From Escherichia coli (GTDB taxonomy: Bacteria; Pseudomonadota; Gammaproteobacteria; Enterobacterales; Enterobacteriaceae), in assembly GCF_036507355.1 (NCBI RefSeq), contig NZ_AP027877.1: a stretch of DNA of 64,000 bases. One strand, written 5' to 3'. The translations under genes were made by a program, and so were the position numbers. Positions 23,942 to 24,290 of the stretch are shown one piece after another (position 1 is the first letter of the stretch; every line of letters starts with the position of its first letter). The notes below the pieces were generated by a model. It was not told the origin of the DNA. It worked only from the letters and a program-made list of their open reading frames with translations, and did no database searches.

Positions 23942-24290
23942 TTGCGTCAGGCAAGGCTGTTATTGCCGGATGCGGCGTGAACGCCTTATCCGACCTACAC
24001 AGCACTGAACTCGTAGGCCTGATAAGACGCGCAAGCGTCGCATCAGGCAATGCTGTTATTGTCGGATGCGGCATGAACGCCTTATCCGACCTACACACAG
24101 CACTGAACTCGTAGGCCTGATAAGACACAACAGCGTCGCATCAGGCAATGCTGTTATTGTCGGATGCGGCGTGAGCGCCTTATCCGACCTACACACAGCA
24201 CTGAACTCGTAGGCCTGATAAGACACAACAGCGTCGCATCAGGCGCTGCGGTGTATACCTGATGCGTATTTAAATCCACCACAAGAAGCC
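23942..24290. repeat. REP/BIME cluster (about 3 tandem units) between pepA and holC
   Basis: Repeated units GCCGGATGCGGCGTGAACGCCTTATCCGACCTACAC...GTAGGCCTGATAAGACGC...GCGTCGCATCAGGC recur three times with small variations. Confidence 0.7.

Follow-up and report, generated by a model that had tools for sequence, protein, structure and literature searches.

A three-unit BIME-2 array in the spacer between pepA and holC of Escherichia coli

BIME-2 elements are composed of Y and Z2 REPs in alternating orientation, whereas BIME-1 elements join a Z1 and a Y REP through a long L linker, often with an IHF site, and occur as single copies (Ton-Hoang 2012, PMC3333891). At the DNA level, BIME-2 elements are enriched for gyrase cleavage sites, Y REPs are cut by gyrase far more often than Z2 REPs, and the gyrase signal rises rather than falls under a transcription block (Sutormin 2019, PMC6379681). 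The E. coli K-12 element at the pepA-holC locus is tabulated in the same work as 'BIMEs2 4490136-4490219 <holC-<pepA' (83 bp; PMC6379681, Supplementary Table DS3), where in vivo gyrase cleavage sites mapped to it by Topo-seq number two for Cfx, one for RifCfx, none for Micro and two for Oxo. At the RNA level, the REP325 array stabilizes the mRNA of the upstream gene yjdM and, ahead of yjdN, works as an attenuator that depends in part on Rho; for fragments of two to four hairpins no Rho dependence could be detected, and the influence of REPs on mRNA half-life varies from case to case and depends strongly on context (Harris 2026, bioRxiv 10.64898/2026.03.23.713779).

Here we analyse a 64,000-nt stretch of an E. 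coli genome (contig NZ_AP027877.1, assembly GCF_036507355.1; hereafter the window), for which an original prediction had placed a REP array of about three tandem units between pepA and holC and had called it a routine feature. The array is a textbook BIME-2 in every sequence-level respect: its REPs are of the Y type and of the Z2 rather than the Z1 type, they alternate in inverted orientation, the linkers are short, the unit is tandemly repeated and the site is extragenic. Copy number also varies between strains, with one, two or three units in E. coli and one to four across Escherichia. The element is already known, being catalogued at the pepA-holC locus, and 'routine' was a fair description. 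Only the number of units is specific to this strain: three, the commonest allele in E. coli, versus one in K-12. We assign a probability of about 0.9 to the reading as a whole, namely a BIME-2 of three 98-nt Y/Z2 units in the pepA 3' UTR together with the DNA and RNA roles proposed below.

Anatomy of the array and its surroundings

The array lies wholly outside coding sequence, after the pepA stop codon (23941) and before the holC ATG (24297), and its first REP stem follows the pepA TAA at a distance of 23 nt (Table 1). NCBIfam models confirmed the identities of both neighbours, and the last base of holC is also the first base of valS (24740). Tandem Repeats Finder reported a single tandem array at 23947-24244 with a period of 98 nt, 3.1 copies, 94% matches, no indels and a score of 526, and a repeat search of the sequence returned 98-nt copies spaced by 96, 98 and 98 nt. 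The predicted array is therefore real, as is its composition of about three units of inverted REP pairs, with three Y REPs alternating with three inverted Z2 REPs. Its predicted end at 24290 falls within the spacer but about 46 nt beyond the end of the last REP at 24244.

To assign REP types, we dissected the array with two patterns. The Y pattern, G[CT]CGGATGCGGC..GCCTTATCCG[GA]CCTAC, which also picks out the Y REPs of REP325, gave three matches starting at 23965, 24061 and 24159. The Z2 pattern, GTAGGCCTGATAAGAC..GTCGCATCAGGC, likewise gave three (24013, 24111 and 24209), each 36 nt in length with the long Z2 upper stem found in REP325. Together, these matches resolve six REP hairpins in the order Y>, <Z2, Y>, <Z2, Y>, <Z2. 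The tail-to-tail linkers share the form (AC)ACAGCACTGAACTC, with lengths of 14, 16 and 16 nt. The left flank, a REP half-site followed by AAGGCTGTTATT, corresponds to a truncated Z2 end plus the head-to-head linker and supplies the extra 0.1 copy of the array. Half-sites at either edge (23944-23952 and 24257-24266) are complementary and are paired in the predicted lowest-energy fold.

Table 1. Features of the pepA-holC region and other REP sites in the window.
Feature	Position	Strand	Remarks
lptF	21063-22163	-	NCBIfam equivalog model far above cut-off
pepA (leucyl aminopeptidase), upstream gene	22430-23941	+	ORF; NCBIfam NF002072, 1093 bits
pepA-holC intergenic spacer	23942-24296		355 bp
Left flank	23944-23964	+	REP half-site GCGTCAGGC (23944-23952) followed by AAGGCTGTTATT; read from sequence
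Y-type REP 1	23965-23998	+	GCCGGATGCGGCGTGAACGCCTTATCCGACCTAC
Tail-to-tail linker 1	23999-24012	+	ACAGCACTGAACTC; 14 nt; sense strand C 5, G 2
Z2-type REP 1, inverted	24013-24048	-	+ strand reads GTAGGCCTGATAAGACGCGCAAGCGTCGCATCAGGC
Head-to-head linker 1	24049-24060	+	AATGCTGTTATT; 12 nt
Y-type REP 2	24061-24094	+	
Tail-to-tail linker 2	24095-24110	+	ACACAGCACTGAACTC; 16 nt
Z2-type REP 2, inverted	24111-24146	-	
Head-to-head linker 2	24147-24158	+	AATGCTGTTATT; 12 nt
Y-type REP 3	24159-24192	+	
Tail-to-tail linker 3	24193-24208	+	ACACAGCACTGAACTC; 16 nt
Z2-type REP 3, inverted	24209-24244	-	
Right-flank REP half-site	24257-24266	+	ACCTGATGCG
Conserved block just 5' of the holC ATG	24267-24296	+	TATTTAAATCCACCACAAGAAGCCCCATTT; ~30 nt
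holC (DNA polymerase III chi), downstream gene	24297-24740	+	ORF; NCBIfam NF004345, 339 bits
valS	24740-27595	+	NCBIfam equivalog model far above cut-off
Single Z2-type REP	19841-19876	+	originally predicted at 19825
BIME-1-type pair	37790-37877		Z1 REP, 25-nt linker, inverted Y REP; originally predicted at 37740
Y + inverted Z2 pair	47760-47843		originally predicted at 47745
Partial Y, inverted Z2, Y	50997-51098		originally predicted at 50985
Inverted Z2 + Y pair	57265-57349		originally predicted at 57240

Predicted folds show each REP as a hairpin of its own, whether as DNA or as + strand RNA, with RNA energies between -14.3 and -20.5 kcal/mol. The RNA fold of the whole spacer has a z-score of -8.3 relative to shuffled sequences on either strand. 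The upper stems of Z2 REPs 2 and 3 (24111-24146 and 24209-24244) carry GACACAACAGCGTC, which gives an A.C mismatch in + strand RNA and a G.U pair in - strand RNA. These two hairpins have -14.3 kcal/mol in the sense RNA and a more stable -20.2 kcal/mol in the antisense RNA; as a result of the A.C and G.U difference, the strand on which they form better is probably not the transcribed one. Two minus-strand open reading frames across the region (23925-24128 and 24056-24226) were dismissed as by-products of the repeats.

At the right edge of the spacer, most of the Enterobacteriaceae genera sampled retain the block of about 30 nt that precedes holC (TATTTAAATCCACCACAAGAAGCCCCATTT), whereas the remaining spacer sequence turns over. 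Where an ERIC-like element abuts holC, the block is missing. This block is probably the holC translation-initiation region.

Across the window, the REP tail motif CTTATCMGRCCTAC occurs 14 times with up to one mismatch, compared with 0.02 occurrences expected by chance, and six of the 14 belong to the pepA-holC array. All five smaller REP sites that had been predicted elsewhere exist, 12-50 nt beyond the coordinates given for them (starts at 19841, 37790, 47760, 50997 and 57265). The linker of the BIME-1-type pair at 37790-37877 contains an IHF-like site one mismatch off the consensus.

The window holds several further features. At 22988-23182 (-), antisense within the pepA coding region, there is a match of 174.7 bits to the Rfam family RF02850 (Ysr276, a Yersinia antisense sRNA family); this match may only reflect conservation of the pepA sequence. 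A magnesium riboswitch (RF01056, 125.8 bits) is found at 40727-40842 (-), upstream of an 898-aa open reading frame at 37937-40633 (-), which is the expected arrangement of an mgtA leader. A leuX-like tRNA-Leu(CAA) at 16889-16973 (-) has mobile-element debris on its 3' side (8800-14600), including an IS66 transposase (8805-10190), an IS1 transposase fragment (12299-12802) and a serine recombinase/invertase (13925-14554). The debris resembles what is left of an island that had inserted at leuX.

Unit number and spacer content in E. coli and its relatives

The original prediction also held that array length varies between strains and proposed a comparison of unit numbers. To monitor unit number in E. 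coli, we searched 5,426 complete genomes with a query made of the flanks only, so that the span of the match gives the spacer length. The flanks matched in all but one of these genomes. Allele frequencies were taken from 60 evenly spaced rows of the resulting ranking. Three units (spacer of 355 or 353 bp) were found in 28 of the 60 rows (~47%), two units (~257 bp) in 12 (20%) and one unit (159 or 161 bp) in four (7%), the last comprising K-12 and its laboratory derivatives as well as others. A further 15 rows had a 133-bp spacer with no REP, and in one row the pepA side was missing. Two other samples agreed with these counts. The predicted variation thus holds, with one, two or three units or no REP at all among E. 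coli genomes.

The alleles differ by exact multiples of 98 bp (355/353, 257 and 159 bp), and the K-12 spacer of 159 bp is shorter than that of the window by exactly two units (196 bp). ST131 strains, for example EC958 and JJ1886, carry an 801-bp sequence identical to that of the window locus. No array of more than three units appeared in the 60-row sample of complete E. coli genomes. A synthetic six-unit query aimed at longer arrays returned only 801-bp three-unit loci of the ST131 type among its top 40 matches, in a ranking that separates longer arrays poorly. Four units are present in SCPM-O-B-8794, a GTDB species-representative genome that is labelled E. coli and lies outside the collection of 5,426.

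A direct count found the REP-less 133-bp allele in 1405 of 5425 complete E. coli genomes (~26%), for example in NZ_CP139953.1 (locus L005, 343-475). In place of REPs, this allele contains a palindrome, CCCTCACCC..CCCTCTCCC-N-GGGAGAGGG (also given as CCCTCACCC..CCCTCTCCCTAAGGGAGAGGG), which is probably box C. The element is dispersed, with a median of six places per genome. In strain WB61, the match at the REP-less spacer came in two pieces spanning 226 bp, which may represent a tandem duplication.

The array is also present in other Escherichia species, with three units in E. albertii, two in E. whittamii and in Escherichia sp. E1V33, and one in Escherichia sp. MOD1-EC7003. This indicates that the element is older than the divergence of the Escherichia species. 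Linker variants are lineage-specific and shared among the units of one genome or lineage, a pattern that favours concerted evolution or recurrent amplification in place over an ancestral array that has stayed frozen. The simplest route for changes in unit number would be unequal recombination or slippage between the 98-nt repeats; alternatively, TnpA(REP)/RAYT could act on the array, as TnpA(REP) cleaves and recombines BIMEs in vitro (Ton-Hoang 2012, PMC3333891).

To place the locus in a wider context, we compared pepA-holC spacers from 80 Enterobacteriaceae species. Species-specific REP pairs occupy the spacer in Klebsiella, Citrobacter and Enterobacter, and box C-like elements do so in Pseudocitrobacter, Phytobacter and Kosakonia. 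ERIC/IRU-like elements are found in Salmonella arizonae, Klebsiella spallanzanii, Raoultella and Kosakonia. Depending on the lineage, the spacer is thus filled by a BIME-2 of one to four units, by box C-like or ERIC-like elements or by other species-specific REPs, and in most cases the short conserved ends on either side are the same.

One explanation for this turnover is that the array is purely selfish or neutral repeat DNA without effect on its neighbours, residing in an insertion-tolerant spacer and amplified by RAYT or by recombination. The presence/absence and copy-number polymorphism in E. coli, the unrelated repeat families that fill the same spacer across Enterobacteriaceae, the concerted evolution of units within each lineage and the in vitro activity of TnpA(REP) on BIMEs (PMC3333891) all speak for it. 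However, gyrase cleavage has been mapped to the K-12 orthologue (PMC6379681), and given the REP325 results, it is unlikely that six stable hairpins in a transcribed spacer leave RNA decay and read-through unaffected. We therefore consider a wholly inert array unlikely, if by no means far-fetched. Moreover, this explanation concerns selection and not mechanism, and in that respect it overlaps with our preferred reading of a BIME-2 with DNA and RNA roles.

The opposite view would be that selection repeatedly favours a structured element between pepA and holC-valS, with unit number tuning, strain by strain, the pepA:holC-valS expression ratio or local supercoiling. If true, such tuning would take place close to genes that encode a replisome subunit and an essential tRNA synthetase. 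We hold this to be doubtful, with only a slim chance of being correct; alternatively, the spacer simply tolerates insertions. Any function of the array is dispensable, as ~26% of E. coli genomes have no REP there, and it is not dose-critical, as unit number ranges from one to four. Nature thus offers an allelic series of zero, one, two and three units in E. coli, and four in a related genome labelled E. coli, that could be used to test the recently proposed dose- and context-dependent tuning of read-through and mRNA stability by REP arrays. The series could serve equally to ask whether more Y REPs bring proportionally more gyrase cleavage.

Likely roles of the array in RNA and DNA

A terminator scan found no intrinsic terminator-like site on the + strand of the spacer, and no sigma-70-like promoter was detected in the spacer, including the conserved 30-nt block. 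Our literature search returned nothing relevant on promoters or operon structure of holC, valS or pepA. One supplementary table, of bidirectional terminators, lists yjgN:pepA:holC:valS as the genes affected by a terminator downstream of valS (Harris 2026 supplement), which suggests that pepA-holC-valS co-transcripts exist. Together with the lack of a terminator or promoter in the spacer, this entry indicates that pepA transcripts probably run through the array.

In such transcripts, and by analogy with REP325 in yjdM-yjdN, the six hairpins would shield pepA mRNA from 3'-to-5' exonucleases and would partly attenuate read-through into holC-valS. The array is thus likely, on this analogy, to be both a 3' stabilizer of pepA mRNA and a partial attenuator into holC-valS. 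A REP hairpin within ~15 nt of a stop codon reportedly stalls terminating ribosomes, the rule of Liang, Rudd and Deutscher (2015); the pepA-holC array does not fall under it, as its first stem is 23 nt from the stop. Within holC, about 100 nt before the valS ATG, there is a promoter-like site at 24613-24642 (+), with TTGCCA, an 18-nt spacer, TAGACT and an upstream TG. This site, a match to the consensus only, may drive valS independently of read-through across the array.

Could the array instead be a Rho-independent terminator of pepA? GC-rich hairpins directly after the pepA stop codon would fit this idea, but no hairpin is followed by a U-tract, the + strand scan of the spacer was empty, and most REPs have no poly-U tract (Harris 2026, bioRxiv 10.64898/2026.03.23.713779). 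A terminator function is accordingly very improbable.

We gave the same low credence to a second possibility, that the units are naRNA4-like sRNA genes whose transcripts would bind HU and condense the nucleoid by bridging REP cruciforms, a role proposed for naRNA4 (Qian 2015, PMC4550694). With a gathering score of 59.5 bits, the Rfam naRNA4 model RF02564 has two passing matches in the array, one of 82.2 bits at 24016-24091 and one of 73.2 bits at 24114-24189. However, both are on the minus strand, antisense to pepA-holC-valS, whereas the sense strand scored 51.9 and 51.7 bits, under the gathering score, and no minus-strand promoter-like site was found within 23600-24600. Alignment showed that the model represents the inverted-Y, linker, Z2 pair of REP325, and it also passes at 51018-51095 (-; 86.2 bits) and 57268-57346 (-; 65.9 bits), both of which are Y/Z2 pairs. 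As the model matches any Y/Z2 pair, including those at 51018 and 57268, it detects BIME-2 units in general; at pepA-holC it passes only in antisense because the REP orientation is opposite to that of REP325. The condensation role has been contradicted for REP325/naRNA4 itself: deletion or overexpression left nucleoid volume unchanged, and REP-REP contacts were not seen (Harris 2026, bioRxiv 10.64898/2026.03.23.713779). The naRNA4 matches should not be annotated as sRNA genes.

Returning to our preferred reading of the locus as a BIME-2, we considered its role at the DNA level. The original prediction stated that such arrays bind gyrase and IHF, and of these, gyrase is borne out by cleavage of the K-12 orthologue (PMC6379681), whereas IHF is not, since the spacer contains neither an L linker nor a match to the IHF consensus WATCAANNNNTTR. 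With three Y REPs, the preferred gyrase target, versus one in K-12, the array would provide a transcription-independent gyrase site or supercoil barrier. Extrapolating from the one-unit K-12 orthologue, we infer that the three-unit array is likely a gyrase target. RRS (replication risk sequence) elements were also considered and set aside, as they have no link to the pepA-holC locus and the RRS paper treats BIME-2 only as supercoil barriers.

That the array is an IHF-binding BIME-1 (RIP/RIB) element has next to no chance of being right: BIME-1-class REP pairs do have an IHF site (PMC3333891) and IHF had been named in the prediction, but the pepA-holC array pairs Z2 with Y, has linkers of 12-16 nt, repeats its unit and lacks a match to WATCAANNNNTTR, which already refutes this reading, and the real BIME-1 of the window sits elsewhere, at 37790-37877. 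The appropriate annotation label is therefore BIME-2 (REP array), not sRNA gene, and the array should not be listed as an IHF site. Beyond correct annotation, it matters little.

Comparison with known elements

The array shares with BIME-1/RIP elements two inverted REPs, one of them of the Y type, and an extragenic position. In contrast, the Z1 REP, the long IHF-bearing L linker and the single copy that mark BIME-1/RIP are all absent from the pepA-holC array. The box C-like element of the REP-less allele occupies the same spacer, bounded by identical conserved sequences (TAA..TTGCGT at the left end, TATTTAAATCC.. at the right end), and, like the BIME-2 array, is dispersed, GC-rich, palindromic and intergenic. 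Nonetheless, it belongs to an unrelated sequence family, has no REP motif and leaves a spacer of 133 bp.

REP325, the yjdM-yjdN BIME-2 that serves as the best-studied model of its class and is the source of naRNA1-6, resembles the array in its alternating Y and Z2 REPs and its position between co-oriented genes. It is larger, with six units (12 REPs) versus three units, and has a period of 100 nt versus 98 nt, with linkers of 13 nt (head-to-head) and 17 nt (tail-to-tail) compared with 12 and 14-16 nt. The two arrays have opposite orientations relative to transcription, and their linker sequences are unrelated. Both have tail-to-tail linkers that, on the transcribed strand, are rich in C and poor in G (C 5-6 and G 2 in pepA-holC; AAATTCCCGCACCCTCC in REP325). 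With two loci only, this shared composition could be chance or could hint at a Rho-loading sequence.

The K-12 pepA-holC BIME-2 has the same locus, flanks, Y and Z2 REPs and linkers. It differs in having one unit (two REPs), whereas the window has three (six REPs), and units 2 and 3 of the window carry a 16-nt tail-to-tail linker instead of the 14-nt form.
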